Assembly: GCA_964572155.1 (NCBI GenBank)
Contig: CAZNDZ010000003.1
Coordinates: 202,224-266,223 of the forward strand
Length of the DNA: 64,000 bases
Origin: an uncultured Planctomycetales bacterium
GTDB lineage: Bacteria > Omnitrophota > Gorgyraeia > Zapsychrales > Fredricksoniimonadaceae
Direction of reading: 5' to 3'
Position 1 is the stretch's first letter. Each line of letters begins with the position of its first letter. Shown here in pieces: positions 787 through 43,777 of this stretch. The notes below the pieces were generated by a model, which did no database searches, was not told the origin of the DNA, and worked only from the letters and a program-made list of their open reading frames with translations. The translations under genes and the position numbers were made by a program.

Positions 787-2075
787 AGCTTAATAATCTT
801 TCTGTCTTTAATATGATGATAAATATTTTTTACATCAAAAATTAATTTGGCATGGGTCTGGACAAAGCCATAATCTATTTTTGTATGATCGACCGCAACA
901 ACCACCACGTCATATCGCTTGATCGCCGCTGCGGTTAATTCAATGCCCTGCATATCTAAACCATCCACTTTTAAATATGGGATCATCGGATCATGAAAAT
1001 CAACCGTGGTGCGACGACGCAACACATCAATCAACTTGATCGACGGTGATTTGCGCAAATCTTTAACATCTTTCTTATAGGTAACACCTAAAATCAAGAT
1101 CTTAGCCTTCTCAAGTGGCTTCTTTAACATTTCTTCGATGCGATGCACGGCATATAACGGCATGTGCGCATTAACATCAGCTGCTAACTTAATGAATTTG
1201 GAATTAAACCCATAACGTTTGGCCTTCCAATATAAATACAATGGATCCTCTGGAATGCAATGACCACCAACACCTAAGCCTGGATAAAATGGCATAAAGC
1301 CAAATGGCTTGGTCTTGGCCGCATCAATGACTTCCCACACATCAATGCCCAACTTATGGCACGTCTGAGCAATCTCATTGATCCAACCGATATTGACAAT
1401 GCGAAATGAATTCTCTAACAACTTGGTCATCTCCGCAGCTTTGGGCGATGCAACGATGTGCACATGTTTGATAATCGATCGATATAACATGGCGGTTAAT
1501 TTTGTACAGTCTGGCGTTAAACCACCAACGACTTTAGGGATGGACGTCACATCAAAATGTTTGTTGCCTGGATCAATGCGCTCTGGCGAAAATGCTAAAA
1601 AGAAATCTTTGCCGGCTTTAAGCCCACTCTTCTCAAGCTCTGGTTTGATCAATTCTTCCGTCGTGCCTGGATAAGTCGTGCTCTCTAAAACTACCAACGC
1701 GCCTTTCTTTAAATACTTGGCGGTGGTTCTGACTGCACTTAAAATAAATGAAACATCCGGCGTGTACTTCCGTTTAATCGGCGTTGGTACGCAGATTAGA
1801 ATCACATCAGCGGTTTTCAAAATGCTAACATCCGTTGTTGGTGTAAAGCGATGATTATGCAATACGGCATGGATTTGAGGGGCGTGTATGTCGGTGATAT
1901 AACTCTTGCCCGTCTTTAATGCATCCACCCGATGCTCATTGGTATCAACACCAAACGTCTTAAAACCTTTACGTGCAAAAGACAGCGCCAACGGCAGGCC
2001 AACATACCCTAGGCCAATGACCGCCACCACAGCCTGGTGTCCTGCAATCTTTTTTTCAAAAGCACGCACGGGCAT
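783..2075 (-). CDS. nucleotide-sugar dehydrogenase (UDP-N-acetyl-D-glucosamine/mannosamine 6-dehydrogenase family, WbpA/WecC-like)
   Basis: Motifs [24 protein letters not shown] and GGHCIPEDP are typical of UDP-glucose/GDP-mannose dehydrogenases. The ORF-track start at 2108 is TTG; I used the first ATG at 2075 (MPVRAF...), which has an AGGGGA SD-like sequence upstream. Confidence 0.75.
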
Positions 2076-16161: not shown

Positions 16162-16268
16162 GTTCAATAAATAACAAATTTTAAAATCAACAACCATTAA
16201 AATACCTCTCTCATTAAAACAAGATGCAAATTAAATTTTCTTCGCTACAAAATCATTACTTCTAGGGG

Positions 16269-19200: not shown

Positions 19201-20249
19201 GTATCTGAAAATCCTGTACCAGTAAAGCTTTGAACTACCGCCGGATTAACCGCCATCGCAAAATCAACCCCACCTGAAAAATATTTTCTAGGGGTTTTGG
19301 CTTCGTCTTCTTTCACGTAATTGAACACGCCTTTTTTATAGGCTTGTAAATAGCGGTCGAAGATTTGTTGTTTGATGGTTTTGTCTTGAATGTCGATGCC
19401 CTTGACGGTTGATTTATTGGCGTAGACTTCATTGAGCAAACTTGACTTTAAATTATTTTTGTACCAGCCGGCTAAGATGATGGCGTTGAAGATTTGGCGC
19501 AATGGGGCGAAATTCTTGCCTTCGTTTACTTCCTTTTCCAATTGCGGGATGATCACTTCTCTTAATACTGCGGCAGATGTATCGTTTGAGTTTACTGGCG
19601 CGGCGTGTTTTTCTGTGGCTAAATAATCTTGTTCCAACATGACCTTCAAATGCGCTTTGGTGACAAACGCAGTTTGATTGTGTTCGTAGACTTCGGCTTG
19701 ATCAGCCATGATCCAAACTTTATTAAAGGTGTTTACAGGAACTTGGGCATTGCCGAACTTTTGCTTGGTCTTGGCATAGACTTCGTTCCAGAAGGTCTTA
19801 CCTAAGTCTTTTTCAGGATATATTAAGGAAGCGGTGATTTGCTTTAATATATAATCTTGGGCTAAAAGGTCGCGGCCCATATCGGTTTGGCCTAAAGCTT
19901 CATCAACGGTCCTATTTTTTTCGTAGGGTGACAAATTAACCCATAAGGAACTTGCTGGCACGGTTAAGGCAGCTAAGAAGTAGCGGATCAGCCTATCACC
20001 CTCTTGCTTTAACGCAGGTTCTGAGGCATTTTCTTGACCTGGATCCACAATAAAATCAAACAAGAACGGATTATCCTGATTTACCGTTAAACCCTTTAAC
20101 ATCAATGGTTTATACGCGGCGCTTAACCCAACCATGGCGCCTGGTTCAGGAAGGCCTAATAAAGGCGCTGCATAGGCATTTGGCTGTGGCGCTACAATCG
20201 AAAAAGAGACCGCAACGGTTACAAAAATAGATAAAATTTTCTTATACAT
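16269..20249 (-). CDS. large secreted protein, paralog 2 of the same family
   Basis: MYKKILSIFVTVAVSFSIVAPQPNAYA^APLLGLPEPG…; 1326 aa. I used the first ATG (the ORF-track start is TTG). Conserved N and C modules, unique 900-aa centre. Confidence 0.75.
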   Translation of the reverse strand: MYKKILSIFVTVAVSFSIVAPQPNAYAAPLLGLPEPGAMVGLSAAYKPLMLKGLTVNQDNPFLFDFIVDPGQENASEPALKQEGDRLIRYFLAALTVPASSLWVNLSPYEKNRTVDEALGQTDMGRDLLAQDYILKQITASLIYPEKDLGKTFWNEVYAKTKQKFGNAQVPVNTFNKVWIMADQAEVYEHNQTAFVTKAHLKVMLEQDYLATEKHAAPVNSNDTSAAVLREVIIPQLEKEVNEGKNFAPLRQIFNAIILAGWYKNNLKSSLLNEVYANKSTVKGIDIQDKTIKQQIFDRYLQAYKKGVFNYVKEDEAKTPRKYFSGGVDFAMAVNPAVVQSFTGTGFSDTLVMVEAGVVEVSANARQYGVMVLGDPIKTQADFRFQTNEMLRLATDNPEATISNELIEKFMNEMILYRGKSGSEVRNKISEFMALFYSVLSKRKSFLINNRHKIPRGIREDITKLDALKSIVKRLWSNREFPTGAGELMDSGSGALSATVDAKESSASLIDEETAVRRLNIVINTQKDIHSAVDAFAYLIKHNPTKISFEALMKFLKSVNEKATLEGKGSIQFDVDGMILDLLDQLNIQIITLQEVKSEQSSINREKLIQLKTQIESFDDVISLKLAKAVEDYCRHDPAMAVTDEQFKVIKEVIRDFVNGVDFTTTPREYLAKIQDGGVMNLARLSDVVAYFIQIKDFSNVGDVENFLGQYRGSGFNITDENGIHQNRTFAILLAAVTRAADELRKEQGLDPIKRDNISGDVHVSDDSIQKLLGDLHADPAIQRLMQDIAKIDIYEYDNGVELRNGKVYDSLIALNVRDIFAQLEFKYNFDKDNFDETLQMAIAYVGQFNIKGSDVTLGNGLSLDPELSGLVEGFQSIIDRVKAKPEILAFGGAFDTVPAVLQGSPDAAMGIMDGLKKMLGKEQVKVKTKAERYEDAKDILRLKLTHRINKLSDVKELLDATKTLGEIAPKYLSRNNFELLDAVIRKLKRLKNGQLNGYGQENINRDLLDLKASFKAADLKAQVEKKLSEPDSTPGSLTGADPNTTQGFDVTHLHFDDNDKGMVAVNVEFKNVLNARDALSQLGLFSEEGYVEDVLNMQIFDALGWPSDVKVFEEVLKQYLDFTDKLLELNTAPLGRVEIRIWANLLSETKRELRALSGISGGSDPRFDIFEKYRNRIKKILLEKFEIAIKNAKKAKKSIVPIIQTGLEDGTIDPDSLWDKLAPAGVSPQWKERIFAGLPSAKGFFNSAMVTNGGIDLKKTLDNTAVRKDGQGVQMRIDPAMIERVRREGIDSLTPVIFKVSPVVNIWSLLGLTPPTSAATKIALN
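16336..16442. repeat. 3' coding block of paralog 2, near-identical copy of 13376..13482
   Basis: See the partner entry 13376..13482. Confidence 0.7.
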
Positions 20250-20313
20250 GCGCAAAGGATACCATACTTTCCATGGGAATACCAGTTTACGTAACTTGCT
20301 ACCAATATTTGTT

Positions 20314-23300
20314 TTATGGGGGTGTCAGGCCAATCGTTTGCCAAATGTTGGCAATAGGTGTGATATTAAAAATCACCGGCGTCAAAGACTCAATCCCGTC
20401 CCGCTTAAAGCGCTCAATCATAGCAGGATCAATATCCATTTGTACACCATTTTCCAAATCTTTTTTAACCAATGTATTATCAGCCGTAGCTTTTAAATCG
20501 ATACCACCGTATTGATCTGTGGTATTCATGGCCAAGTCCATGCCTCTTAAAGTTGGCGCATTCCAAGTCAACGCATCAAGTCTTGATAATAAAGTTTTAA
20601 GCTGATTTCTCTGTCCTTCTTCAATATACTTATCCTCTAACAATATGGTTACATTTCGTTTAAGCAAATCAATATCATAATCAATTGACTCAAGCACATA
20701 TTGCCTATGCCCGTTGTTAAATGATGCTAATATCTTCTCATATCCCTCGACAGCACTTGTTAAACGCTGCAAGATAAAGCCCACAAATAATGATTTTAAC
20801 TCCTTAGCTTCCTCAATATTTAAGAGCAAGCCCTTATCTATGCTTAACGTTGTCTGTTGTGTCGCTAAAAAATCTTTAAAGGCCAACATGATTTCATGCA
20901 TCGCTTCATTCTTACTCATTTCATTAGCCAAATTCACTAAATAATTTCCAAAGATCTTCGTATTGATGTTCTTGATCCTAAAACTACTTAAAGTAAAGAT
21001 ATCGGTTAAATAGAATACCTTAGCATCTTTCTTATCTTTATACATCGGCGCTAATCGTTGAAACATTACATTTAAATTACTTAAAAACTCTTCCATGTAT
21101 TTGATTTCACGAACATTGTCTTTATTATTGATGCTACGTCGAGCACCATTGATCTTATCCAATAATCCTCGCTCAACTTCCAACCGTCCCCCGATGCTTT
21201 CTTTAACAACTTTTTTACCATCAATGGCATGTTGCAAATCAGCGTTCAACGATGCGCTAACTTCATTTATGGCTTTTTGCCATGCCTCATTTGTATAGGC
21301 ATTTTCCCTTTTAGCCCTTCTACTAACCGCTTTCATCAACTTCTTTGTTTCATCACCCATATGCAATGGACCTTTTCTAGCCAAATGGTATTCGCCACCT
21401 GCTTCCAAAACAACCGCCGGCCCCTCAACTAATTTCTCAAATTCATAAGATCGATCTTTAGGATCTTCGACCTGTGTTAACAATAGAAATGCCCTGCGAT
21501 AACTATTTCTCAACTTCTCTAAATATTCAATTTCAAGACTAAGCCTGAAAACGCGATCATCTAATCTATTCACTGAAGTTCGCAAGCCCTGAAGATTTGA
21601 ACGGCTAAATTCACGCTGTTCAACACCCCTTGAACTAGCAGCGTTCATTGCTTTATCAGGGTAATGCATAAAATCAAATCCACTTCCTCTAAAACCCAAA
21701 CTTCTTAAAACTCTAATCCATACTTCAACTTTTCCCCCATCCATACGTATCGGTTGAATGCCGATCAAATCTTGACCATACTCATTAACAAAACCCTCGA
21801 CTAACAATCTTCCCACATTGCTACGATCACCTTTATTGGCCTCTACAATGTCAATATTCCAACGCTGCTTATCTGAAATCCATGTTGCTAACAATATACC
21901 TTGCGGATTGTTTTTATCTCCAGCATAAAATAAAACAATATCCCCGTCGGGAACGTCTTTATGTCGATCTAAATAATTATTTGTATTAAAAACCCTAACT
22001 GCTGTCTGCCAATTTTTTAAAACTTCTTTAATCTCATCTGTAGTTTCCACATAGTTCGTTTGTGGGGTCGTCATGGCATCATCAGTTGGAACGCTTATCA
22101 AACCTAATTCAACTGCTAAATAAAGCATGTAGTTTGTTCGTTCTTTATCTTTTTCATCTGCTGATAAAATAAACTTTCCGTTAATCAATATTTGCTTAAA
22201 ATATGTTTCTTTGACGGCAAGATCTTGGAATCTTTCCTTTTGTTCTGGTAAACCATCATAATCTGCATATACAGATTCTAGCGATGGTCGATATAGATCG
22301 TTTTTATATACCCACTTAACAGAAATATTTGAATTTCTTCGTTCTACCGTCTTAATAACTCTTCCCTTTAAATCTGCATACGCTTTGGCATCCCAGAACT
22401 TATAATTATTCTTAACATATTCATCATTTAAAAATGGCTCCGCTTGCACACGCAATTCGGCCACAATCTCTTCAAATGTCTTTAAAGGACCACTTATCGG
22501 GTTAGTTTTATTAGCCATTGCTCTATCATTCGACGACATGCGCAAGACAACAAATCCAGCCACCCGTGTTATCTCAACTGGATCATATTCGTCAGTAAAT
22601 GGATTTACGTAATCAAATATTACGACATATTTTCCATCTCGATTCTCCAACTTAAATGCAACATTCTTCCTTGGAAATAACCTAGGATTATCTTCTGAAT
22701 ATTTAACCCATTCACCACCATTAATCCTGTAATGCCCCCATTCAAATTCAATGCGAGAAGTTAATTTTCCTAATAATAACTTAAACTCAGACCTTTTATC
22801 AGCTAACTCAAAAGACACACTTTTGTTCTCATCAGTTAATTGTTTAGAAATCATCGCTGCATCGTTTTTTGTTCTCTTGAATGCCTCTAATTGCTGAATC
22901 AAATCTGATCTCTCTTTAATAATTCTTTCTTTTCGTTCCTGCGATACTTGACTCAATGTGTTTTCATCTAAAAAAGAATCCAATGCTTTTGTTAGTTCAG
23001 CTATGCGTTCTTCCATTTGCTTTAGATTATTTGAATTCATCGCGGCATTTATATTCACCAAACGATCTTTTGACGCTGACATTGCCTCATTAAATTGTCG
23101 CACATCACTTGTCATGTCAGGATTCGCAGCCATACCTGGGTTGACACCGCCGGAGAAGTATTTTCTTGGTGTGATTTGATTATTTTGAGTGTCTTCCTTA
23201 ACAAAATTGAAAACACCTTTTTTGTAGGCTTGCAAATAACGGTTATAGATTTGTTCTTTAATAGTTTTATCATCTAGATCTATGCCTTTGACGGTTGACT

Positions 23301-24153
23301 TGTCGGCATAGACTTGGGTTAACAAGGCGGTTTTAAGATTGTTTTTATACCAGCTGGCTAGGATTAACGCGTTAAAAATTTGACGCAGATTCGCAAAGTT
23401 TTTACCTTCATTAACTTCTTTTTCTAACTCTGGGATGATAATTTCACGGATAATGTTTTGGGTTGTTTTATTTGTTGTTTGAGACGCGATAAATCGCGTC
23501 TCTACGTTATGTTTTTGGGACGCCAAATAATCTTCTTCTAACATGACCTTCAAGTGGGCTTTGGTCACGAAGGCGGTTTGATGGTGTTCGAAGACTTCGG
23601 CTTGGTCGGCGGTGATCCAGACTTTATTAAAGGTGTTAACAGGGATTTGAGTGTTGCCATATAGTTCTTGAGACTTGGCATAGACGCGATCCCAGAATGT
23701 TTTTCCGAGTTCTTTTTCAGGATAAATGAGCGAGGCGGTGATTTGTTTTAAAATGTAGTCTTGGGCTAAAAGGTCGCGGCCCATATCGGTTTGGCTTAAG
23801 GCTTCGGGTGCGGTCTTGTCTTTTTCATATGGCGATAAGTTGACCCACCAATCTTTTTCTGGGATGGCTAAACTTGCGAGGAAGTATTTGATTAACTTAT
23901 CCCCTTCGGCTTTTAAGGCCTCGCCTTGGAGTCGGTCTTGGCCAACATCTACAATAAAATCAAATTGGAATGGATTTGTCTTTGAGACCGTCAAACCCTT
24001 GATCATGGCTGGTGCAAACGGGGTGCTTAGAGAAACCATCTTTCCTGGCTCTGGCAAACCCAATAAAGGCGCGGCATAAGACTTTTGAGGAAGAATTATA
24101 GACGTTGCCGTAAATGCGACAATTAAGATGTAAATAAGGGATTTTCTATACAT
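20314..24153 (-). CDS. large secreted protein, paralog 3 of the same family
   Basis: MYRKSLIYILIVAFTATSIILPQKSYA^APLLGLPEPG…; 1279 aa; conserved N and C modules, unique centre. Confidence 0.75.
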   Translation of the reverse strand: MYRKSLIYILIVAFTATSIILPQKSYAAPLLGLPEPGKMVSLSTPFAPAMIKGLTVSKTNPFQFDFIVDVGQDRLQGEALKAEGDKLIKYFLASLAIPEKDWWVNLSPYEKDKTAPEALSQTDMGRDLLAQDYILKQITASLIYPEKELGKTFWDRVYAKSQELYGNTQIPVNTFNKVWITADQAEVFEHHQTAFVTKAHLKVMLEEDYLASQKHNVETRFIASQTTNKTTQNIIREIIIPELEKEVNEGKNFANLRQIFNALILASWYKNNLKTALLTQVYADKSTVKGIDLDDKTIKEQIYNRYLQAYKKGVFNFVKEDTQNNQITPRKYFSGGVNPGMAANPDMTSDVRQFNEAMSASKDRLVNINAAMNSNNLKQMEERIAELTKALDSFLDENTLSQVSQERKERIIKERSDLIQQLEAFKRTKNDAAMISKQLTDENKSVSFELADKRSEFKLLLGKLTSRIEFEWGHYRINGGEWVKYSEDNPRLFPRKNVAFKLENRDGKYVVIFDYVNPFTDEYDPVEITRVAGFVVLRMSSNDRAMANKTNPISGPLKTFEEIVAELRVQAEPFLNDEYVKNNYKFWDAKAYADLKGRVIKTVERRNSNISVKWVYKNDLYRPSLESVYADYDGLPEQKERFQDLAVKETYFKQILINGKFILSADEKDKERTNYMLYLAVELGLISVPTDDAMTTPQTNYVETTDEIKEVLKNWQTAVRVFNTNNYLDRHKDVPDGDIVLFYAGDKNNPQGILLATWISDKQRWNIDIVEANKGDRSNVGRLLVEGFVNEYGQDLIGIQPIRMDGGKVEVWIRVLRSLGFRGSGFDFMHYPDKAMNAASSRGVEQREFSRSNLQGLRTSVNRLDDRVFRLSLEIEYLEKLRNSYRRAFLLLTQVEDPKDRSYEFEKLVEGPAVVLEAGGEYHLARKGPLHMGDETKKLMKAVSRRAKRENAYTNEAWQKAINEVSASLNADLQHAIDGKKVVKESIGGRLEVERGLLDKINGARRSINNKDNVREIKYMEEFLSNLNVMFQRLAPMYKDKKDAKVFYLTDIFTLSSFRIKNINTKIFGNYLVNLANEMSKNEAMHEIMLAFKDFLATQQTTLSIDKGLLLNIEEAKELKSLFVGFILQRLTSAVEGYEKILASFNNGHRQYVLESIDYDIDLLKRNVTILLEDKYIEEGQRNQLKTLLSRLDALTWNAPTLRGMDLAMNTTDQYGGIDLKATADNTLVKKDLENGVQMDIDPAMIERFKRDGIESLTPVIFNITPIANIWQTIGLTPP

Positions 24154-24488: not shown

Positions 24489-25607
24489 TTATTTAAAAGC
24501 TTTCTTGATGCGTTCTTTAAATGTCTTATTCGTTGCTTCGCCAGCTTCCTTGGCAAATTCTTCGATCAACTCTTTTTGTCGACCGGTTAATTGCTCTGGA
24601 ACACCCAACATCACGCGCACATACAGATCACCTTGTTCTTGGGCATGCACATCTGGCATGCCATGGCCGCGCATGCGAAAGACTTTACCGCTTTGTGTCC
24701 CGACGGGAATCTTCATGACGACTTTTTCTTTCAAACTATCAATCGTCACTTCACCGCCCAAGGCAGCTTTATAAAATGGCACGTTTAAATCCGTTGTCAG
24801 GTCATTGTTGCGACGCGCGAAACGTTCATGTTCTTTCACACGAATAAACAAATATAAATCACCACTACCCGCAGCACCCGCTTCACCTTCGCCGCGAATG
24901 CGCAATTGAGAATCATTGTCAACACCGGCGGGGATTTTCACTTCTACCTTACGGTTGACGCGCACCATGCCCTGCCCTAAACAGTCAGAACATTTTTCCG
25001 TAATCATCTTTCCTGTGCCACGGCATTGCGGACATGTTTGTGCCATGCGGAAAAATCCCGACGACATCACCACTTGGCCTTGGCCTTTGCACTGCGCACA
25101 CGTCTTTAAAGCTTTGCCTTCTTTAGCACCGGTGCCATCGCATTTCTTGCAATGATCTAGGCGAGGAAAATGAATTTCTTTTTTCACGCCACTGTATGCT
25201 TCTTCAAGCGTGATTTCTGTTTCATATTGAATATCTCGACCACGCGCACGGGCATGACCGCCACCGCCGCCAAATTGATCGCCAAACATACGTCCTAAAA
25301 TATCACCGAGACCCGCATCCCCAAAGACACTGGAGAAATCAGCCCCTCGGAAAATATCTTCGGAGGTGTAGTTTTGATCAATGCCTTGATGACCATACTG
25401 GTCATAGGTTTGTTTCTTTTGAGCGTCAGAAAGAACACCATAGGCTTCAGAAATTTCTTTAAACTTTTCCTCAGCAACTTTCTTCTCTGACTCTTGCACG
25501 CGGTCTGGATGGTATTTCAAAGCCAGCGAACGATACGCTTTTTTAATATCAGCGATCGTCGCTGACTTTGGAACACCTAGGATTTCGTAATAGTCTTTCT
25601 TCGACAT
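24489..25607 (-). CDS. dnaJ: chaperone DnaJ
   Basis: J domain with HPD (YHPDRVQ), a G/F region and four CxxCxGxG zinc-finger repeats. Confidence 0.9.
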
Positions 25608-25609
25608 AC

Positions 25610-27535
25610 TTATTTATCCGATGATGCCTTAAAGTCTGCATCAATGACATCATCTTTTTTACCGCCCTGTGATTCACCACCAGCAGGACCACCTTGTGGT
25701 TGTTCTGGCCCTTGTGGTTGCTCACCCTGAGCACCAGCGCCTGGTTGACCTTGCGCAGCGGTTGCTTTATATGCTTCTTCGGCTAACTTATGGCTAGCTT
25801 TTTGTAAGCTTTCCATCGCCGCTTTAATGGCGTCATGATTCTTTTCGGTAATCGCAGTTTTAAGCAATGCTAATTCTTTTTCTGCTGCTTCCTTATCCGC
25901 AGCGGAAACCTTATCACCATAATCTTTGAGCGACTTTTCCGTCGTATAGACCATGGTGTTGGCTTGATTGAGCAATTCTGCCTCTTCTTTGCGTTTGGTA
26001 TCTTCCGCCGCAAACTTTTCAGCTTCCTTGACCATCTTTTCAATCTCAGCGTCGGACAACTTGGTCTTAGCGGTGATTTGAATCTTTTGTTCTTTACCTG
26101 TTGCCTTATCCTTAGCACCAACATGCACAATCCCGTTGGCATCAATGTCAAACGTGACTTCAATTTGTGGAATACCACGTGGTGCTGGTGGAATACCCAC
26201 TAAATCAAAGCGGCCAAGCTCAGTATTATCATTAGCCATTTGACGTTCGCCTTGTAAAACGCGAATGGTCACGGCCGTTTGATTTTCTTCCGCGGTTGAA
26301 AAGACTTGACTCTTCTTTGCCGGGATCGTGGTGTTGCGATCGATCAACTTTGTAAACACACCGCCCATGGTTTCGATACCTAAAGACAATGGTGTAACGT
26401 CAAGTAACAGAACATCTTTAGCGTCACCGGTAATGATAGCACCTTGGACAGCAGCACCTAAGGCCACACATTCCATGGGATCAATGCCGCGTTCAATCTT
26501 TTGGCCAACTTCATTTTCCAAGAAGGATTGAACAATGGGCATACGGGTTGGTCCACCAACTAAGACAACACGGTCAACCTTCACATCTACACCCATTTTT
26601 GCTGCCGCATCTTTGATAGCTTGACGTACTGGCCCACGGCAACGGTCGATCAATGGCGCAATTAAGCTTTCCAATTTCGAACGTTCGATTTTGATATTCA
26701 AATGCTTTGGACCAGATGCATCGGCGGTAATATAAGGAAGATTAACTTCCGTTGCAATCGTACTTGAAAGTTCAACTTTTGCTTTTTCAGCAGCTTCACG
26801 CAAACGTTGGAACGACATCTTGTCATTGCGCAAATCAACGCCGGATTCTTTCTTGAATTCTTCAATGATGTAATTGATCAAGGCATTGTCCATGTCGGTG
26901 CCGCCGAGTTGATTGTCCCCAGAGGTTGACAAGACTTCGAATGTCGCCGCTTTATTAGCTTCATCCCAGCCCATTTCCAAAATGGTAACGTCGAGCGTAC
27001 CACCACCAAGATCGAAGACCATGATCTTTTGTTCTTTGCCTGCTTTATCCAAACCATAGGCCAAACATGCTGCGGTTGGTTCGTTGATGATACGCAACAC
27101 CTTAAGACCAGCGATTTCACCAGCATCTTTAGTAGCTTGGCGTTGATTATCATTAAAATATGCAGGAACGGTGATGACCACATCTTCAACTTTGTCGCCT
27201 AAGAATTTCTCGGCGTCAGACTTAATCTTTTGCAAAATAAACGCAGAGATTTGTTGGGCGGTATATTCTTTGCCAAACACTTTGAATTTATGATCGGTGC
27301 CCATCTTGCGTTTTGCCGCATAGACAGTCCCTTCGGAATTAACCGGTGCTTGACGTCTTGCTGGTTCACCGACGAGCAATTGACCATCTTTGGTAAACGC
27401 CACAAATGATGGGAACGCTTTACCGGATGCCACGCCCGCGCCTTCAGCGGATGGGATAATGACGGGACGTCCGCCTTCCATAACTGCTGCTGCAGAATTT
27501 GATGTACCTAAATCGATTCCAATGACCCTTGCCAT
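25610..27535 (-). CDS. dnaK: chaperone DnaK (Hsp70)
   Basis: [10 protein letters not shown] and [19 protein letters not shown] motifs; 641 aa with a G/Q/P-rich C-terminus. Confidence 0.95.
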
Positions 27536-34199: not shown

Positions 34200-34400
34200 T
34201 TATAATTTAACAACGTTTTGGGCTTGTTCGCCTTTTGGACCTTGTACGATCTCAAATTGGACGTCTTGGCCTTCTTTCAAGGATCTGTAACCGTCACCTT
34301 GAATCACGCTGTGATGAACGAAGACATCTTTTCCGTTTTCTGGGGTGATGAAACCAAAACCTTTTTGATCATTGAACCACTTTACTTTACCTTTAACCAT
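34200..34400 (-). CDS. cspA: cold-shock protein CspA family
   Basis: [18 protein letters not shown]…VFVHHSVI: the RNP1 and RNP2 motifs; 66 aa. Confidence 0.9.
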
Positions 34401-35685: not shown

Positions 35686-36927
35686 ATGGAAATCCTATCA
35701 TTAGCTGCATTAATGGCTGTCATCGCCTTAAGTTGTTTCACAAAGATTAACCCTGGGTTGTTTGCCATTGGCTTGGCGTGGATGCTAGGCACTTGGGGCG
35801 CACATATGCCACTAAGCCAGATCATTGGCGGATTCCCGACGTATTTGTTAATCATGCTCGTTGGCGTGACCTACCTGTTTGCCATGGCTAAGCATAATGG
35901 CACATTAGAAAAACTAACCCACATGTCTTTACATTTCTTTAGACAACGCCCCATGCAACTACCGCTCATGGTCTTTTTACTTGCTTTAATCCTGTCGACC
36001 ATTGGGGCTGGTAATATTGCAACCGTTGCCTTACTTGCCCCCATTGCCATGGCCATTGCTTGGGAAACAGGCATTGGCGGTTTCTTTATGACGATCATTT
36101 TAATTTGCGGTGCGAATGCAGGCACCTTCTCACCCATGGCTTTAACGGGTGTCATTGCAAATGGCTTGATCAAAAAGATTGGTCTTAACCTCGATCCTTG
36201 GTCAGCGGTATACTTACCAAATTTAATCGCACAAAGTTTCTTGGCCTTGTTGTGCTATGCATTTTTCTATTGGCGCATTAAGAATCATCGTAAGCACGCA
36301 CACCCAGCTGAAGGTTTAAATCTACCACTAACTCCGACGTGGAATAATGCTCAAATTATCACATTGGGTGCCATTGTCAGCTTGTTTATTGGCAGCATTG
36401 TATTTAAAATTGATATTGGATTTTTATCGCTCATCTTAGCAAGCTTATTGGCTTTGTTTAATCTAGGTGAAAGCAAAGAAGCCATCAAGATGATCCCGTG
36501 GAACACCATCCTCATGGTCTGCGGAGTCAATACCCTCATCGGTATCTTAGAAAACGTCGGTGGATTAAGCCTTCTAAGCGACTTGCTTGCACGGGTGTCA
36601 AATCCCACGAACGTAACCGCTGTCACAGCATTTATCACAGGTATTATTTCGGCGTTTTCAAGCTCTTCAGGTGTTGTTATGCCAACATTTATACCCTTGG
36701 TGCCTGAATTTCTTGAAAAAATTGGCAGCAACAATCTTGTTGGGGTGATTTCTTCAATCAATGTCGGGGCACACTTGGTTGACATTAGCCCCTTGTCGTC
36801 GCTAGGTGCTTTATGTGTGGCTAGCGCCCTTCACGAAGACAAAGATAAATTATTCCGCCAACTCTTGGTCTTTGGATTATTCATGTCCTTCGCTGGGGCC
36901 ATCATTTGTTTTGTATTATTTCGGTAG
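35686..36927 (+). CDS. polytopic membrane permease of the ion-transporter superfamily (ArsB/NhaD/GntP-like)
   Basis: 413 aa, ~12 hydrophobic segments, internally duplicated in appearance. The specific family is not assigned. Confidence 0.5.
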   Translation: MEILSLAALMAVIALSCFTKINPGLFAIGLAWMLGTWGAHMPLSQIIGGFPTYLLIMLVGVTYLFAMAKHNGTLEKLTHMSLHFFRQRPMQLPLMVFLLALILSTIGAGNIATVALLAPIAMAIAWETGIGGFFMTIILICGANAGTFSPMALTGVIANGLIKKIGLNLDPWSAVYLPNLIAQSFLALLCYAFFYWRIKNHRKHAHPAEGLNLPLTPTWNNAQIITLGAIVSLFIGSIVFKIDIGFLSLILASLLALFNLGESKEAIKMIPWNTILMVCGVNTLIGILENVGGLSLLSDLLARVSNPTNVTAVTAFITGIISAFSSSSGVVMPTFIPLVPEFLEKIGSNNLVGVISSINVGAHLVDISPLSSLGALCVASALHEDKDKLFRQLLVFGLFMSFAGAIICFVLFR

Positions 36928-38826
36928 TTCTTCTTCGGGCTTCGATGCTTCTAGATATTCCCATCGCTCGTAGGCTTTGAGCAGTTGGTTGGAAACCTCT
37001 TCGGCGCGACTTTGTGTTTTAGCGACTTCTTTAGGGTCTTTTTGATAAAAAGCAACGTCGGCTAATGTGGTAAATAGTTTTTCTTGTTCAGTTTCTAGAT
37101 TTTCTATCTCAAGCGGCAATTTTTCTAACTCGGCTTGTTCTTTAAAAGAGAGTTTTCGGGTGGCAATGGGCTTATCTAATTTTGTTGCGATCTTGTTTTC
37201 TTTTGTTTTCGCCAACACCGACTGAGTTATGACTTTGCGTTGCTCTAGCCAATCATCATAACCACCTGGAAACTCATAAATCTCGCCTTTGCCTTCTAAA
37301 ACGATCGTCGATGTGACCACATTATTTAAAAATGCACGGTCATGGCTCACCAAAATTAGTGTGCCAGAATATTCCATCAATAATTCTTCTAATAGCTCTT
37401 GGGTTTCAATGTCCAGATCATTGGTTGGCTCGTCCATGATTAAGAAATTTGACGGCTTGGTAAATAACCGCGCTAAAAATAGACGGTTGCGTTCCCCGCC
37501 TGATAAAACCTTAACTGGGGTGCGTGCACGATCCGGCGTAAATAAGAAATCTTCCAAATAACCAATGATGTGACGTGGGCGACCATTGATCGTCACCGTG
37601 TCTGAACCCATGGCCACATTTTCAATCACGGTTTTTTCTTCATCTAATTGTTCACGCAATTGATCAGAATACGCAACTTCTAAATTCGTCCCTAAACGCA
37701 CCTTACCTTTTTGAGGTTCTAATTTCCCAAGTAAGATTTGCAATAAGGTTGTCTTACCTGAACCATTGGCGCCAATGACACCAATCTTATCGCCACGCAT
37801 GATCTGCGTCGAAAAATCCTTGATGATGCAATTATCGCCATAACTAAAACCTAAATGTGCGGCCTTGATGACCAAGTGCCCAGAGGATTCTGATTCTTGC
37901 GCCACAATGCGCGCTTGACCGACTTGTTGACGCTGGGCTTTCTTTGCTTCACGCATGCGCTCTAAGGCTTTCACTCGACCTTCATTACGAGTCCGACGGG
38001 CTTTGACCCCTTTACGTATCCAAACTTCTTCTTCAGCCAAACGTTTGTCAAAAACTGCTCGCTCAGCGGTTTCCATCTCGAGTGCCATGCGCTTACGTTC
38101 TAAAAATGTTTGATAATCACACGACCAGCTAAATATCTTGCCACGATCGAGCTCTACAATGCGCGTCGCTAAATGTGTCATGAACATGCGGTCATGGGTA
38201 ACGAAAAATAATGTACCTGGATAATTTTTTAAGAAACCTTCCAGCCAATTGATTGTATCGATGTCCAAATGGTTGGTTGGCTCGTCTAATAATAAGATTT
38301 CTGGTTTGATGACCAAGGCCTTGGCCAATAAAGCACGGCGTTTTTGTCCGCCAGAGAGTGTCTCGAATTCTGCTTCACCGTCTAATTTCATTTGGGTTAA
38401 GACATATTCAACTTCGGCATCCAAATCCCACCCGCCGGTGTTATTTAATTGTTCTTGCAAGCGATCTAATTCTCGCATGAGTTCAGGGGTATGCTCGGTA
38501 TGCAAACGATGGGTTACGTGGTGATAGTCACTTAAAACTTTCGCACGTTCACCTAAACCTGAAAAAACCAGATCAAAGACCGTACCGGTAATATCTTTGG
38601 GAACCTCTTGAGGCAAATGGGTTACTTTAATGCCTTTTTGATAAATGATCTCACCGCGGTCAATCTCGACTTGGCCTGCCATGGTTTTCATGAGTGTCGT
38701 CTTGCCAACACCATTACGTCCAAGCAAAGCCACGCGTTCACCGGGTTCTAATTGCAAGCTTAAGCCCTCAAAAATGCTGGGGCCGCCAAAAGCTAATGTG
38801 ATTTCTTGTATGCTAATCAGTGCCAT
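36916..38826 (-). CDS. ABC-F family ATPase (Uup/EttA-like)
   Basis: Two ABC cassettes separated by a linker, a C-terminal coiled coil and no TM domain; 636 aa. Confidence 0.85.
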   Translation of the reverse strand: MALISIQEITLAFGGPSIFEGLSLQLEPGERVALLGRNGVGKTTLMKTMAGQVEIDRGEIIYQKGIKVTHLPQEVPKDITGTVFDLVFSGLGERAKVLSDYHHVTHRLHTEHTPELMRELDRLQEQLNNTGGWDLDAEVEYVLTQMKLDGEAEFETLSGGQKRRALLAKALVIKPEILLLDEPTNHLDIDTINWLEGFLKNYPGTLFFVTHDRMFMTHLATRIVELDRGKIFSWSCDYQTFLERKRMALEMETAERAVFDKRLAEEEVWIRKGVKARRTRNEGRVKALERMREAKKAQRQQVGQARIVAQESESSGHLVIKAAHLGFSYGDNCIIKDFSTQIMRGDKIGVIGANGSGKTTLLQILLGKLEPQKGKVRLGTNLEVAYSDQLREQLDEEKTVIENVAMGSDTVTINGRPRHIIGYLEDFLFTPDRARTPVKVLSGGERNRLFLARLFTKPSNFLIMDEPTNDLDIETQELLEELLMEYSGTLILVSHDRAFLNNVVTSTIVLEGKGEIYEFPGGYDDWLEQRKVITQSVLAKTKENKIATKLDKPIATRKLSFKEQAELEKLPLEIENLETEQEKLFTTLADVAFYQKDPKEVAKTQSRAEEVSNQLLKAYERWEYLEASKPEEELPK

Positions 38827-40392: not shown

Positions 40393-41325
40393 TTATACCG
40401 ACACGAGCACAGCTGCTAAATAACTCTCTGCACTACGTCCACTGCCGACAAAATCTTTGTCTTGAGAAAAGCATTCAATCTTCTTAACAGTTTTGGGGAA
40501 CATCGCACTTAATTGATCCGTGTTTATTGCGCTATAATTCGTAGATACAAAAATATAGCCATTTGGATTAAGCATCTTTAAAGACATGGCAATTAAATTC
40601 GGTAAGTCCTTCTTAACACTAAAAACCTGTTTTTCATGACGGGCAAATGATGGTGGGTCTAAGATGATCAAATCAAAATGGTTATTTTTAACCACCGCGC
40701 GATCTAAATAATACATGGCATCGGCACGTACAAATTCATATTCACCAACTGGTAAGCGATTTAAATCATAATTGGCGCGCCCTCGGTGTAAACACTTCTG
40801 ACTTATATCCACATTGCTCACACTCAATGCTCCAGCGGCCTTACAATGCACGCCAAATGAACATGTGTACGCAAAGCAATTTAGAACCTTTTTACCTTTA
40901 GCAAGAGCAGCAACGGTATGACGGTTTTGACGCATATCTAAGAATAAGCCACTATTTAAGCCGTCATTTAAGTCAACATCAAACTTCAGGCCAAATTCTT
41001 CGACGGTCGTGGCACTCAAGGTTTGATCAATTAAAACATGGGTATGAAAGGCATCAGGGTTGGACGCAGGTGACGACGTGCGATCTTTGATGATCAAATA
41101 ATCAGCAGCATAAACATCTTTGAAATAACGATTGATCTCATCAAAATGATTTAACCAAAACTTATCGTAAATCTGGACGACAAAATGACGATTGTACTGC
41201 TCTAGGACAAAACCATTTAACCCATCGCTAATGCCATTGACCAAACGCACCGCATTGGTGTATTTAAAAAATGGCTCGCGTTTTTTAATGGCGCGATTAA
41301 GTGTAATGGAAAGGTTTTCCTGCAT
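40393..41325 (-). CDS. class I SAM-dependent rRNA methyltransferase (RlmI/YccW-like)
   Basis: C-terminal Rossmann methyltransferase domain (…LNCFAYTCSFGVH…DLIILDPPSF…); N-terminal region not assigned. Confidence 0.7.
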   Translation of the reverse strand: MQENLSITLNRAIKKREPFFKYTNAVRLVNGISDGLNGFVLEQYNRHFVVQIYDKFWLNHFDEINRYFKDVYAADYLIIKDRTSSPASNPDAFHTHVLIDQTLSATTVEEFGLKFDVDLNDGLNSGLFLDMRQNRHTVAALAKGKKVLNCFAYTCSFGVHCKAAGALSVSNVDISQKCLHRGRANYDLNRLPVGEYEFVRADAMYYLDRAVVKNNHFDLIILDPPSFARHEKQVFSVKKDLPNLIAMSLKMLNPNGYIFVSTNYSAINTDQLSAMFPKTVKKIECFSQDKDFVGSGRSAESYLAAVLVSV

Positions 41326-41331
41326 ATAAAA

Positions 41332-42285
41332 CTAACTGGCCCCAATCAACCAACCAGCCACAAAAACCAATAGCCCGCCGACAATGACTTGGAATGCTGC
41401 GGATAGAAAAGGCGTATCCATATATTTCCATCGGATAATTGAAATGACAAATAACTCAATGATAACAACCAAAACAGCGATGGTTGTTGCCAAGTTAAAG
41501 TCTGGAATGAAATATGGCAGGGTATGTCCGATGCCACCGATCGTCGTCATTAGACCACAGACAACACCACGAATCCACGGCGCACCACGGCCGCTTAGCT
41601 TTCCGTCATCTGACAATGCTTCTGTAAAACCCATGCTAATCCCAGCTCCTATCGAAGCGGCTAATCCAACTTTTAATGTTTCTAACGTATTGTGCGTTGC
41701 AAAAGCTGCGGCAAATAAAGGTGCTAAGGTTGAAACAGAGCCATCCATTAATCCTGCTAATCCTGGTTGAACGAAACGTAACACAAACAAACGATGCGCC
41801 GCATGCTGTTCAGCAACAACCTCTCCTGCTTCTACTTGTGCCGCGTGTATGGTTGATGCGACTGATTCATGCCGACCTTCTTCAGCCGCTAAATCTCCCA
41901 ACAATTTGCGCATCTTTGCATTGCTGGTCCGACTAGCCGCAACCTCATAAAAACGACGTGTTTCTAATTCCATGGACGCAGCTTCTGCCCGTGCTTTTTC
42001 TGGTGTTATATTTTCAACGAACCACGTAGGAGAACGCTTCACAAAACCTTTCACGTCTTGGCGGCGAATTAATGGGATATGATCGCCAAAACGTTCACGG
42101 TATAAATCAATCAAACATTGACGATGACGGGATTCTTCTTCGGCCATCTTGGTAAACAATTCAGCCGTGGAAGGAAAATCTTTACGGAGGTTCGCAGCAA
42201 AATCTAAATAGATACGACCATCTTCTTCTTCAGCAGCAATCGCCACAGCTAAAACTTGTGCCTCAGTTAAATCATGAAAATACAT
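41332..42285 (-). CDS. ferritin-like (erythrin) domain fused to a VIT1 iron-transporter membrane domain (MbfA-like)
   Basis: N-terminal rubrerythrin-like EExxH pairs (AEEESRHRQ…AAEEGRHE), followed by a five-TM VIT1/CCC1 domain. Confidence 0.75.
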
Positions 42286-42295
42286 AGAATCCCTC

Positions 42296-43240
42296 CTATG
42301 ACGGAAGCGACTGGATCAATTCTTTATTGGTTGGAAAACTTTTTAATTTATCAACCAAAGCTTTGGCCGCTTCCACTTTATTCATCCCTGCAAGTGCTCG
42401 ACGTAAGTTCTCAATCTGATTAAAATCTGTTTTCTCAATGATCAACTCTTGTTTGCGAGTGGAACTTTTGGAAATGTCTATGGCAGGAAAAATGCGGTGT
42501 TGCGCGATATCACGTGATAAGACAACTTCCATATTACCTGTACCTTTGAATTCTTCAAAAATCACTTCATCCATGCGGCTGCCGGTCTCAATTAAAATCG
42601 TCGCTAAAATGGTCAATGAACCTGCACCTTCTATCTTGCGGGCATATCCAAAAATGCGGCGTGGCACTTCCATAGCTCTTGAATCAACACCACCTGACAT
42701 GGTCTTACTGCCACGTGAGGACGTCTGCGCATTGTGAACACGGGCCAAACGTGTCAATGAATCGATGACCACCATCACATTGCCACCATTGGCTGTTTCT
42801 TTAAATGCATCGGCCATCAAGGTATCTGCGGTCTGTAAATGATGTTCATAGCTCATGTCCGACGAAGAACTACGCACATCAACACCACAGGAACGTTTAA
42901 AATCCGTGACCTCTTCTGGGCGTTCGTCGATCAACAAACAATGCAACTTGATCTCAGGATAACCCTTGGTGATCGATTGGCATAAATGTTTAAGAAATGT
43001 CGTTTTACCGCACCCTGGAGGCGCCACAATAAGCCCACGCTGCCCCATGCCAATCGGACAAATCAAATCCATGGCACGCATGGTCAATTCACTCGAACCT
43101 TTTTCTAAATAAATACGCGGTGAAGGATCTATTGGAACACCTGCGAGAAATAGACGTTGATTCTCATCTTGATGACGCGGCGGCACGTACCGATTAACCG
43201 GCTGTTCTCTTCTTTGCGGATTACTTCTTCTTGGAATCAT
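42296..43240 (-). CDS. rho: Rho-family ATPase, C-terminal domain only (no N-terminal primary RNA-binding domain)
   Basis: [41 protein letters not shown] and [40 protein letters not shown] align with the E. coli Rho ATPase domain, as recalled from memory. The ORF is 314 aa and starts 18 nt after the sodC stop. Confidence 0.8.
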
Positions 43241-43258
43241 AATTACCTACAAACATCA

Positions 43259-43777
43259 CTATTGAACTACCTCTATAATACCACAGCCAATGCGTCCACC
43301 AGCATTACCAGTGGGTTGACCCATGTCATCTTCTTTTTCATGCAAGATAATGGCTTTGCCGTTTAACGCATAACTACCTTCTTCTAAATTTACACCAGGT
43401 AAGATAACTTTTAAACTACCGATACCATCTTTATTAACGTCGATATTACCCATATCGCCCGCGTGCGCGTGTTGCAACCCATCTTTGGGTAGAAATCCAT
43501 GCATCACCTTATCAGGATTAAAGTGACCACCTGCAGCTTTGCCCATATCTTCGCAACTGCCGTTTTCATGAAAATGAATGCCGTGCTTACCAGGAGGTAC
43601 ATTGCTCACATTAACCACCACGGATAAACCACCTTCTTCATGTTTAATAATAACTTCACCCGACACCATTGAATCTGGCGTCGTTCCTTTAATCACAGCC
43701 TTGCCTTCATGTGCAAATGCTGGCACAGATAACATAAAAATACCAACGATGGTTAACAAAATGCGTGACGACTTCAT
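43259..43777 (-). CDS. sodC: periplasmic Cu/Zn superoxide dismutase
   Basis: Signal peptide; Cu/Zn SOD motifs GFHxHxxG and GNAGGRxACGVI. Confidence 0.9.
   Translation of the reverse strand: MKSSRILLTIVGIFMLSVPAFAHEGKAVIKGTTPDSMVSGEVIIKHEEGGLSVVVNVSNVPPGKHGIHFHENGSCEDMGKAAGGHFNPDKVMHGFLPKDGLQHAHAGDMGNIDVNKDGIGSLKVILPGVNLEEGSYALNGKAIILHEKEDDMGQPTGNAGGRIGCGIIEVVQ

Follow-up and report, generated by a model that had tools for sequence, protein, structure and literature searches.

A conserved family of Rho homologues comprising only the C-terminal ATPase domain in Omnitrophota

To our knowledge, all mechanistic models of the transcription termination factor Rho begin with the capture of RNA, or with contact to RNA polymerase, by the N-terminal domain of the protein. 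Most contacts between Rho subunits are carried by the C-terminal domain. In a survey of 2730 genomes, based on translated genes from RefSeq, a 'functional Rho' was defined as a protein possessing both the RNA-binding and the ATPase domains, the primary binding site being regarded as required for normal Rho function in Escherichia coli, and proteins with one Rho domain only were set apart as 'Rho-like' and not counted as functional (Moreira et al. 2024, PMC11347177); the phyla mentioned in the passages of that paper drawn on here do not include Omnitrophota. The same passages, referring to D'Heygere et al. 2013, describe 'Group B' or Type 4 Rho proteins in which the OB fold is present and the Rho_N helix bundle is missing, and they report that in Bacteroides fragilis a disordered region of Rho raises its affinity for RNA. 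N-terminal losses, as in Type 4 and in the single-domain 'Rho-like' proteins, are thus already on record in these passages, and the statement in an earlier, sequence-only reading of the locus studied here, namely that known Rho variation consists of N-terminal insertions and not of loss, has to be given up. Since 'Group B' and Type 4 proteins retain the OB fold, the family described below, from which the OB fold is absent, differs from them. The known short Rho forms keep the OB fold, and in the portions of the literature at hand we found no account of a conserved, monophyletic ATPase-only family with basic tails.

The gene lies on the minus strand of a 64-kb window, the whole stretch of DNA that was analysed, as an ORF of 314 aa plus stop with an ATG start (42296..43240). 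Its product aligns to E. coli Rho over residues 127-414 only (E 2.5e-74) and to Thermus Rho over residues 139-425 only (E 2e-80). With the NCBIfam model PRK09376 (NF006886) it reaches a score of 360.3, above the cut-off of 315, over profile positions 126-412 of 413 only, so that this cut-off is passed on the C-terminal domain alone; with TIGR00767 it scores 340.2, under the cut-off of 509.45, and with NF041509 (paralog_Rho2) 294 versus a cut-off of 628, over profile positions 73-359 of 360, as is likewise the case for other members of the family and of its sister lineage. Pfam detects PF00006 alone (E 5e-22), and neither the window protein nor any of 36 family members gave a Pfam match to Rho_N (PF07498) or Rho_RNA_bind (PF07497). 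Custom HMMs for the OB fold and Rho_N, which match 120 of 120 canonical Omnitrophota Rho proteins, matched none of 124 family proteins. In an AlphaFold2 monomer model (pLDDT 80.5) a RecA-type fold comes after residues 1-25, which are unstructured and of low confidence. A Foldseek search with this model aligned about 283 columns to the C-terminal domains of Rho structures (query TM-score 0.81), Rho chains being the only ones among the matches listed. Pfam, NCBIfam, pairwise alignment and the structural model agree, and confirm what the sequence-only reading had proposed, that the ORF is a Rho homologue comprising the C-terminal ATPase/translocase domain only; in the profile alignment the N-terminal domain is absent. 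All the motifs quoted in that reading were found back in the ORF, including a pair of 16 and 17 residues, and the Pro/Arg-rich start of 26 residues was located at residues 1-26.

There is no space upstream for an N-terminal domain, as had been supposed. An in-frame TAG (43247..43249, minus strand), 9 nt 5' of the ATG, closes the reading frame on that side and makes an upstream extension of the ORF impossible, and beyond it lies sodC (43259..43777, minus strand), which encodes a complete Cu/Zn superoxide dismutase unrelated to Rho (Sod_Cu E 1.2e-35, full profile), with a hydrophobic, signal-peptide-like N-terminus. The stop codon of sodC (TAG at 43259-43261) leaves a gap of 18 nt to the short rho ORF, the distance previously given. 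An HMM search of all six frames of the 64-kb window found no coding sequence for a Rho_N helix bundle or an OB fold, which leaves no contiguous ORF for the N-terminal domain, and the first ~25 residues of the protein are a predicted disordered basic tail and not a diverged OB fold.

The protein belongs to a large, monophyletic family from uncultured bacteria, with more than 120 sequence clusters (280-327 aa, 69-86% identical) that share the same architecture, and more than 100 further clusters make up a sister lineage; according to the source names, the family is from Omnitrophota and sister lineages are from Elusimicrobiota and Verrucomicrobiae. Short rho was retrieved at 97 metagenomic loci, 74 of them with a complete ORF, and the upstream genes are unrelated between contexts. 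The short family forms a deep clade apart from canonical Omnitrophota Rho and is, as judged from the sequence comparisons, a deep paralogue clade rather than a shortened version of the rho gene that is resident. A contig scan with the pattern MDEVIFEE, which is universal in Rho, gave at least 600 matches, mainly canonical rho, with one family member among the matches listed; on viral contigs, canonical-type Rho only (44-48% identity) and no family member was found. A phage or defence origin was considered and rejected, as PADLOC and PHROGs yielded generic P-loop matches only. These data also bear on the possibility that the gene is a non-functional, 5'-truncated rho, created by misassembly, by a frameshift or by insertion of sodC, a possibility favoured by nothing but the odd architecture and the close proximity of sodC. 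An artefact or decaying remnant of this kind is effectively refuted: an identical protein is found on three contigs from different sources, homologues of the same length class recur by the hundreds in independent assemblies with differing and unrelated upstream genes, the upstream sodC is complete, and the family has a fixed signature of its own, forms a separate clade and bears the marks of strong purifying selection, with a mean column identity of 73% and all catalytic residues invariant. The organism of the window is represented in the sequencing runs SRR30545106, SRR10036059 and ERR15459718. The frameshift or misassembly upstream of the ATG that the sequence-only reading had wished to see checked can therefore be dismissed, and the gene is, as its conservation indicates, a genuine paralogue kept by selection and made up of the connector and the RecA-type motor only.

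The motor and translocation residues that were checked are retained throughout this family (all features below are on the minus strand). The Walker A motif or P-loop, APPGCGKT (residues 73-80; 43001..43024), contains the equivalents of E. coli K184 and T185, and Gly replaces K181. Residues 102-112 (42905..42937) include the equivalents of E. coli E211, the catalytic Glu, and of R212, the Arg valve, both invariant in 123 of 123 members, and the Walker B strand VMVVIDS (residues 155-161; 42758..42778) holds the equivalents of D265 and S266. In the Q-loop, part of the secondary or translocation RNA-binding site (residues 172-186; 42683..42727), K283 is represented by Lys or Arg and T286 by Ser, and in the R-loop, ETGSRMD (residues 218-224; 42569..42589), T323 is present and K326 is changed to Arg; this usage in both loops matches that of the majority in 158 canonical sequences. 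The motif KSSTRKQE (residues 258-265; 42446..42469) carries the arginine finger (R366 equivalent), again invariant in 123/123. Altogether, the equivalents of K184, T185, E211, R212, D265, R269, T323, G337, R353 and R366 are present in every one of the 123 members. Next to this conservation the family shows 28 specific, fixed substitutions, the P-loop change K181 to Gly among them, and changes of V203 to Lys and of M205 to Tyr or His were observed as well. The K181 change together with the 27 other fixed substitutions could have unpredictable effects on activity, and K181G would be expected to alter the binding of bicyclomycin.

The short proteins also stand apart on the N-terminal side of the motor. 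A tail (residues 1-25; 43166..43240, minus strand), predicted to be disordered, occupies the place of the ~125-aa Rho N-terminal domain; bounded by the family motif, the window tail counts 30 residues, with a pI of 11.6 and a net charge of +4. Across the family the tails are short (2-44 aa, median 28 aa), rich in Arg, Pro and His (17% Arg, 12% Pro) and predicted to be disordered, and in some other Rho-like representatives without an N-terminal domain they are much longer and Arg/Gly-rich. Near-tailless family members of 290-293 aa, with a tail of ~9 residues, exist, so that the tail cannot be the sole RNA-capture device. It is followed by a connector-equivalent segment (residues 26-53; 43082..43165, minus strand) that corresponds to E. 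coli residues ~127-155 and is near-invariant in the family: F31, G34, P36, D38, P39, P41, R42, L45, E46, G48 and T53 are invariant, the family-specific substitutions L136G, H140D and S143P fall here, and the pLDDT is 80-93.

In the window, the gene is probably co-transcribed with its closely spaced neighbours on the same strand, an array of genes for metal handling and oxidative stress. Downstream of short rho, at a distance of 10 nt, lies a rubrerythrin-VIT1 fusion (41332..42285, minus strand), a predicted membrane ferritin-like iron transporter, and two genes downstream a PF10672 SAM-dependent methyltransferase (40393..41325, minus strand), of which a homologue is found at position +1 or +2 of short rho in three other loci. 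Further on the same strand are an ABC-F ATPase (36916..38826), a neighbour in 19 of 91 loci and 76% identical to the copy adjoining short rho in locus L084, and a 66-aa cold-shock-domain protein (34200..34400), which recurs as a neighbour in 10 of 91 loci and shares 92% identity with its counterparts in L082 and L084. Scans for promoters and terminators in the gene array gave counts at or below chance, and neither an Rfam match nor a tRNA was detected in the window. When the neighbours of 91 loci were clustered, no universal operon partner able to act as a loader emerged. A split gene with the N-terminal domain in the upstream ORF was rejected, as the upstream ORFs seen (sodC; a secreted 336-aa protein; 187-aa and 92-aa proteins) show no relationship either among themselves or with Rho. 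The cold-shock protein was rejected as an OB fold supplied in trans, as it lies nearby in 10/91 loci only and never in fixed adjacency.

The product of the gene immediately upstream is often secreted or membrane-bound: in the window it is that of sodC, at 31 of 91 loci it is the secreted protein of 336 aa, and the sister lineage has a 2-TM protein there. In addition, the window protein shows a weak homology to the FliI/SctN ATPases (76-94 bits). Both points would fit a RecA/F1-type ATPase that acts on a substrate other than RNA, for example in protein export. This explanation is nevertheless very improbable: Rho models give 340-360 bits versus at most 94 for the secretion ATPases, whose cut-offs are 380-750, the Q-loop and R-loop RNA-contacting residues that were checked follow canonical Rho, the structure search returned only Rho among the matches listed, and no secretion-system or ATP-synthase partner genes were present among the Pfam-annotated genes of the retrieved loci.

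Co-occurrence of the short form and canonical Rho was seen on one metagenomic contig (L146), where a family member of 329 aa lies 7 kb from a canonical 420-aa rho with its usual neighbours (coaE-rho-prfA), on the same strand and at uniform GC, their products being 51% identical over the C-terminal domain; this is the one locus of 97 with a canonical rho in the retrieved flank. Canonical rho adjoins coaE/prfA in L022, L029 and L055 as well as in L146. As a sole, minimal Rho, the short protein would have taken over after loss of the canonical gene and would terminate transcription upon recruitment via RNA polymerase or NusG and not via rut sites. Such a replacement has a precedent in Fusobacterium nucleatum, which according to the available passages of PMC11347177 has a Type 4 Rho only, that is essential; that protein, however, retains the OB fold. 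The 64-kb window holds no canonical rho, an absence that means little in a small part of a ~1-Mb contig, and among the matches listed no canonical Rho is linked to a genome holding the short form, nor does one fall in the MBF05 accession series, to which the two MAGs with P0055 and P0105 belong. On the other side, canonical full-length Rho is abundant and widespread across Omnitrophota, the short clade represents an ancient paralogue and not a derived orthologue, and both forms coexist on L146, which together make a sole minimal Rho unlikely. Of the two options that the sequence-only reading had left side by side, the second, specialised paralogue is thus favoured by the deep separate clade and by L146, and the minimal Rho is the less favoured one.

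If both paralogues are present in one organism, as L146 indicates to be possible, the short form could be a regulatory subunit that does not act alone but enters mixed hexamers with canonical Rho, leaves each ring with fewer primary RNA-binding sites and as such tunes or inhibits Rho-dependent termination, for example under stress, serving as a natural dominant-negative or specificity modifier. The retention of a C-terminal domain that is ~50% identical to that of the resident canonical Rho is in line with this, as is the position of the window gene in a stress-type gene array, and heterohexamers were earlier proposed for 'Group B' Rho paralogues (PMC11347177, in the section 'Species with two rho genes', as far as that section is drawn on here). 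A pure poison subunit, however, would need no intact Q- and R-loops, catalytic residues and Arg finger, and all of these are conserved over 123 members; moreover, the family has preserved its basic, RNA-binding-like tails, and such tails reach far greater lengths in some other lineages without the N-terminal domain, 28 family-specific substitutions including K181G are fixed, and the two genes are seldom linked. We consider a regulatory subunit a possible but rather unlikely role, ahead of that of a sole minimal Rho.

We therefore prefer, with a probability of roughly 60%, the reading that the short protein is a second Rho-type ring RNA translocase, which acts beside the housekeeping Rho and loads without rut recognition. 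Short Rho would form a hexameric ring like that of Rho, hydrolyse ATP and move 5' to 3' along an RNA threaded through the central channel; the conserved residues suggest ring formation, RNA-dependent ATPase activity and translocation. As the primary binding site is absent, selection of C-rich rut sites would be impossible, and the capture of RNA would be independent of sequence, either by electrostatic attraction through the six basic tails, by a partner docked on the conserved connector, or by both. The ring might act as a remodeller of RNA, RNPs or R-loops, or as a terminator for a subset of transcripts. That the whole clade of Rho proteins without N-terminal domain, in Omnitrophota, Elusimicrobiota and Verrucomicrobiota, consists of autonomous hexameric RNA translocases or terminators that load without sequence preference, via Arg-rich tails and/or a partner on the connector, is a wider proposal that we put forward tentatively and rate at somewhat less than even odds. 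If true, the rut-recognising N-terminal domain is not universally needed for a functional Rho, and these bacteria operate two mechanistically distinct Rho systems in parallel.

A large family under strong purifying selection, which has kept the motor and translocation residues that were checked and has no N-terminal domain, amounts to a natural experiment on the Rho motor alone. It raises the questions of how a ring is loaded without a primary site, whether paralogous subunits mix, and which roles two Rho systems fulfil in one cell. The family also matters for annotation, as the PRK09376 model is passed by the C-terminal domain alone and such proteins consequently are named plain 'transcription termination factor Rho', by which surveys of the presence and absence of Rho in uncultured phyla can be misled.

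Compared with canonical Rho (E. coli 'Type 1', TIGR00767), the short family has in common the connector and the RecA-type domain, where its identity with the Rho proteins of E. coli and Thermus is 44-49% across ~285 residues, with Walker A and B, catalytic Glu, Arg valve, Arg finger, Q-loop, R-loop and the C-terminal helical bundle all retained. It differs in having no equivalent of E. coli residues 1-126, which comprise the helix bundle (Rho_N) and the primary RNA-binding site (OB fold), and in its near-invariant connector, a segment that varies in canonical Rho (PMC5449661). The 'Group B' or Type 4 proteins, for which NF041509 ('Rho, short form') is the model, are second, shorter Rho copies that can coexist with a complete Rho, as the short form does on the L146 contig; like the short family, they occur in PVC-group-related bacteria and have a conserved ATPase with its catalytic residues, and the OB-only representatives P0263 and P0341 share with the short family an 'SS(S/N)D' motif where canonical Rho has 'STFDEP'; unlike the short family, which is without both Rho_N and the OB fold, they are without Rho_N only. 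By the definition given in the cited passages of PMC11347177, the window protein, in which only the ATPase domain is detected, belongs in the 'Rho-like' bin. Finally, the atypical 'Type 2' Rho proteins with disordered basic insertions (Bacteroides, Mycobacterium, Micrococcus) resemble the short family in carrying an Arg-rich, disordered, low-complexity segment N-terminal to the motor, but in those proteins it comes on top of an N-terminal domain that is intact, whereas in the short family a much shorter segment (median 28 aa) takes the place of that domain.

Short rho, a minus-strand ORF at 42296..43240, encodes a protein of 314 aa in which all motifs quoted by the sequence-only reading were found. 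That reading had proposed a Rho homologue consisting of the C-terminal ATPase domain only, and this was confirmed by alignments, profiles and structure prediction. The window protein matches residues 127-414 of E. coli Rho (E 2.5e-74), residues 139-425 of Thermus Rho (E 2e-80) and positions 126-412 of the 413 of NCBIfam PRK09376 (360 bits); it scores 340 bits against TIGR00767, below the cut-off of 509, and 294 bits against NF041509 ('Rho short form'), far below the cut-off of 628 and over positions 73-359 only. The generic ATPase domain PF00006 is its sole Pfam domain. Structure prediction with AlphaFold2 from an alignment of 36 family sequences (pLDDT 80.5) leaves residues 1-25 without secondary structure and places a short helix (26-33) and then a RecA-type fold after them. 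Foldseek against the PDB returned Rho chains only, among the matches listed, with ~283 aligned columns covering the model (query TM 0.81); coverage of the targets is only ~62%, with their N-terminal domains unaligned. The gap of 18 nt to sodC, said to leave no room for an N-terminal domain, was borne out: sodC (Cu/Zn superoxide dismutase, 43259..43777, minus strand) is complete, matching the full Pfam Sod_Cu profile (E 1e-35), and an in-frame TAG on the same strand (43247-43249), 9 nt before the short-rho ATG, closes the frame. Searches with our own HMMs and by tblastn with E. coli and Omnitrophota N-terminal domains detected no Rho_N or OB-fold sequence in any of the six reading frames of the window (64 kb), and thus none of the N-terminal-domain ORFs for which the sequence-only reading had allowed.

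Short rho is genuine: it belongs to a conserved family from which the N-terminal domain is wholly absent. The NCBI and Logan assemblies include three contigs that encode an identical protein, and when 5.8 billion proteins were searched by word index, at least 120 clusters of 284-327 aa at 69-86% identity came up, with PF00006 as the only Rho-related domain in all 120 listed clusters. Mean column identity is 73% across an alignment of 36 diverse members, 0/36 of which match Rho_N or Rho_RNA_bind; custom OB-fold and helix-bundle HMMs matched 120/120 canonical (full-length) Omnitrophota Rho proteins and 0/124 family proteins. JGI metagenomes, scanned for the pattern [16 protein letters not shown] that marks the family, yielded 97 loci with 74 complete ORFs; taken as maximal ORFs, nearly all of the latter measure 290-368 aa. 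The upstream genes vary by context and none is Rho-related: sodC in the window, a secreted 336-aa protein in three comparison loci (L082, L084, L086) and 187-aa and 92-aa proteins in a fourth (L083). A split gene was rejected because these genes are unrelated to Rho and differ between contexts, and an artefact is effectively excluded by the identical protein on three contigs, the many homologues and the unrelated upstream genes. The frameshift or misassembly that had been raised as a concern is countered by the same architecture in independent assemblies with different upstream genes.

The N-terminal tail measures 2-44 residues in the family (median 28), contains 17% Arg and 12% Pro with much His, Asn, Ser and Gln, has a median net charge of +4 and often starts with M-(R/K)-(P/N)-(Y/F)-(N/H); that of the window protein has a pI of 11.6. 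Such basic, disordered tails recur in the family. An acidic patch follows. The connector after it, FLAGxP(I/V)[32 protein letters not shown], hardly varies within the family; that of canonical Rho has been described as poorly conserved (PMC5449661). When 123 family members were compared with 158 canonical sequences (E. coli numbering), equivalents of K184, T185, E211, R212, D265, S266, R269, T323, G337, R353 and R366 were retained in 123/123, and the usage of most canonical Rho was followed at K283 (R/K) and T286 (S) of the Q-loop and at K326 (R) of the R-loop. Family-specific residues are fixed at 28 positions; P-loop K181 is Gly in 123/123 members and never in canonical Rho, and the connector substitutions L136G, H140D and S143P are fixed. 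The catalytic and RNA-translocation residues checked are thus intact in the alignment, and by sequence the motor and translocation site are complete, the loading domain alone being missing. Leading up to the catalytic Glu is a strand of sequence IKL(H/Y)C, whose Lys is invariant and occupies a position that is hydrophobic in canonical Rho; the equivalents of V203 and M205 are K98 and H100 of the window ORF (about 42941..42949), a region which we take to lie near the NusG-KOW docking surface.

Wider relatives came from a full search with HMMER across 1.84 billion representatives at 50% identity, which returned further OB-less Rho-like proteins with longer tails rich in Arg, Gly or Asn (for example P0245, of 325 aa, P0248, P0251, P0262, P0264, P0304 and P0316) and OB-only 'Type 4' forms (such as P0263, P0341 and P0343). 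P0262, P0264, P0304 and P0316 have no OB fold and carry N-terminal tails of 60-128 residues, almost all Arg, Gly, Asn or Gln, with GGGGQ repeats and RRNRRRG runs among the examples; from these proteins it would seem that a basic disordered region took the place of Rho's N-terminal domain on more than one occasion, or did so long ago. The short-Rho family is a deep paralogue clade. It is monophyletic in a motor-domain neighbour-joining tree, its nearest relatives being P0245, P0248 and P0251, likewise without N-terminal domain, and canonical Omnitrophota Rho groups elsewhere, with E. coli-type Rho; as this tree is distance-based, midpoint-rooted and without support values, its coarse picture alone is trustworthy. 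Searching with P0245 gave, among the matches listed, another >100 clusters (286-379 aa) whose sole Pfam domain is PF00006, under the source names Elusimicrobiota, Verrucomicrobiae and Omnitrophica. For the window family these names are Omnitrophota or Omnitrophica throughout, with Planctomycetales as the label of one further MAG, and the ABC-F and cold-shock genes of the window are 76% and 92% identical, respectively, to those of one Omnitrophica MAG; Omnitrophota is thus the most probable origin of the window.

Three-domain canonical Rho is abundant in Omnitrophota (loci L022, L029 and L055, plus at least 120 clusters at at least 77% identity), and in at least one organism it coexists with short Rho. 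The metagenomic contig L146 (20.3 kb, uniform GC 0.56-0.60) carries, on one strand, coaE, canonical rho, prfA, prmC, murA, trmD, rplS, rnhB, guaA and then short rho; its canonical Rho (420 aa) is 81% identical to that of L022, its short-family member (329 aa) is 65% identical to the window protein, and the two paralogues are 51% identical over the motor. The L146 short Rho (3..992, minus strand) reads LLVNERPEEV, so that the D210 equivalent, two residues before the catalytic Glu, is Asn, unlike the invariant Asp of the 36-sequence family alignment. Given the deep-paralogue topology and the L146 example, the window's own genome probably contains a canonical rho as well; that short Rho is the sole, minimal Rho there seems improbable.

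We propose that short Rho would form a Rho-like ring and translocate RNA, loading it without rut recognition, and we favour such autonomous action, with a probability of about 0.6, over a purely regulatory role. As a purely regulatory subunit in mixed hexamers with canonical Rho, it could poison the ring with no need of an intact translocation site, yet this site appears to be retained, and lineages without the N-terminal domain keep basic, RNA-binding-like tails, much longer in some; we therefore hold this role to be unlikely. A function other than that of an RNA motor is effectively excluded. Some members are nearly tailless (290-293 aa) and the connector is invariant, which suggests a contribution to loading from beyond the tail; a partner could provide it, or RNA ends could thread in directly.

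Short rho forms part of an array of genes on one strand, 5-28 nt apart, in the order znuA, ABC ATPase, ABC-3 permease, photolyase, Glu_synthase-type oxidoreductase, sodC, short rho, rubrerythrin-VIT1 and PF10672 methyltransferase, in which promoter and terminator consensus scans gave counts at or below chance. The gene 10 nt downstream (41332..42285, minus strand) fuses an N-terminal rubrerythrin/ferritin-like to a C-terminal VIT1 iron-transporter domain, presumably resembling membrane-bound ferritin (MbfA-type) iron exporters; with sodC, znuABC and photolyase as its companions, the array has a metal and oxidative-stress theme. Across 91 loci no universal neighbour was found. Two-component genes, KdpDE-type or other, occur in 33/91 (usually at -2/-3), an ABC-F ATPase in 19/91, window included (within two genes either side), a cold-shock-domain protein in 10/91 (+1 to +3), plus the window at ~8 kb, and the PF10672 methyltransferase in four, window included (+1/+2). 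The conserved 336-aa protein, without Pfam match and with a signal-peptide-like N-terminus (L082 6988..7998, L084 7001..8011, L086 8988..9998), is carried by 31/91 loci, the window not among them; in 25 of the 31 it sits at -1, with kdpDE on its other side, and its stop codon overlaps the short-rho start or is a few bases away at most. Much of this sharing is residual synteny among related genomes, and the faint RNA/translation and stress flavour of the neighbourhood points to no mechanism. In the sister lineage of P0245-like proteins (one MAG named Elusimicrobiota), a conserved ~200-aa protein (L194 9388..9984, L195 9380..9994; 45% identical, no Pfam match) is encoded 6-16 nt before the start of short rho. 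Its hydrophobic segments, close to either end, are transmembrane-like, and no homologue was found in the window or the other loci. The window as a whole shows an extreme strand bias, the minus strand carrying 43/47 ORFs of at least 150 aa. Its GC skew stays below zero all along (cumulative -4.4), which fits a single replichore arm, and it contains no tRNA gene or Rfam family that the scans could detect. Directly downstream of dnaK-dnaJ (25610..27535, 24489..25607), three consecutive giant minus-strand ORFs (13309..16197, 16269..20255, 20314..24153; 962, 1328 and 1279 aa) have no Pfam match and lie in a stretch of lower GC, 0.37-0.39 against ~0.42.

The C-terminal domain alone passes the NCBIfam NF006886 (PRK09376) equivalog cut-off of 315 bits (333-403 bits in the seven OB-less proteins scanned), and MAG records name such OB-less proteins plain 'transcription termination factor Rho'; this hides the missing domain and may inflate Rho presence calls in uncultured phyla. 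Moreira et al. counted single-domain 'Rho-like' sequences in 421 species, set them aside as non-functional by definition and refer their description to the supplement (PMC11347177); in the literature searched, no description of a conserved ATPase-only Rho family was found. The short paralogues already known ('Group B', Type 4 and the NCBIfam 'short form') have by definition lost the Rho_N bundle and kept the OB fold (PMC11347177). The window family differs from all of these in that the OB fold is not retained, and as a Rho motor inferred from sequence to act without either domain it should be of real interest to the Rho field.
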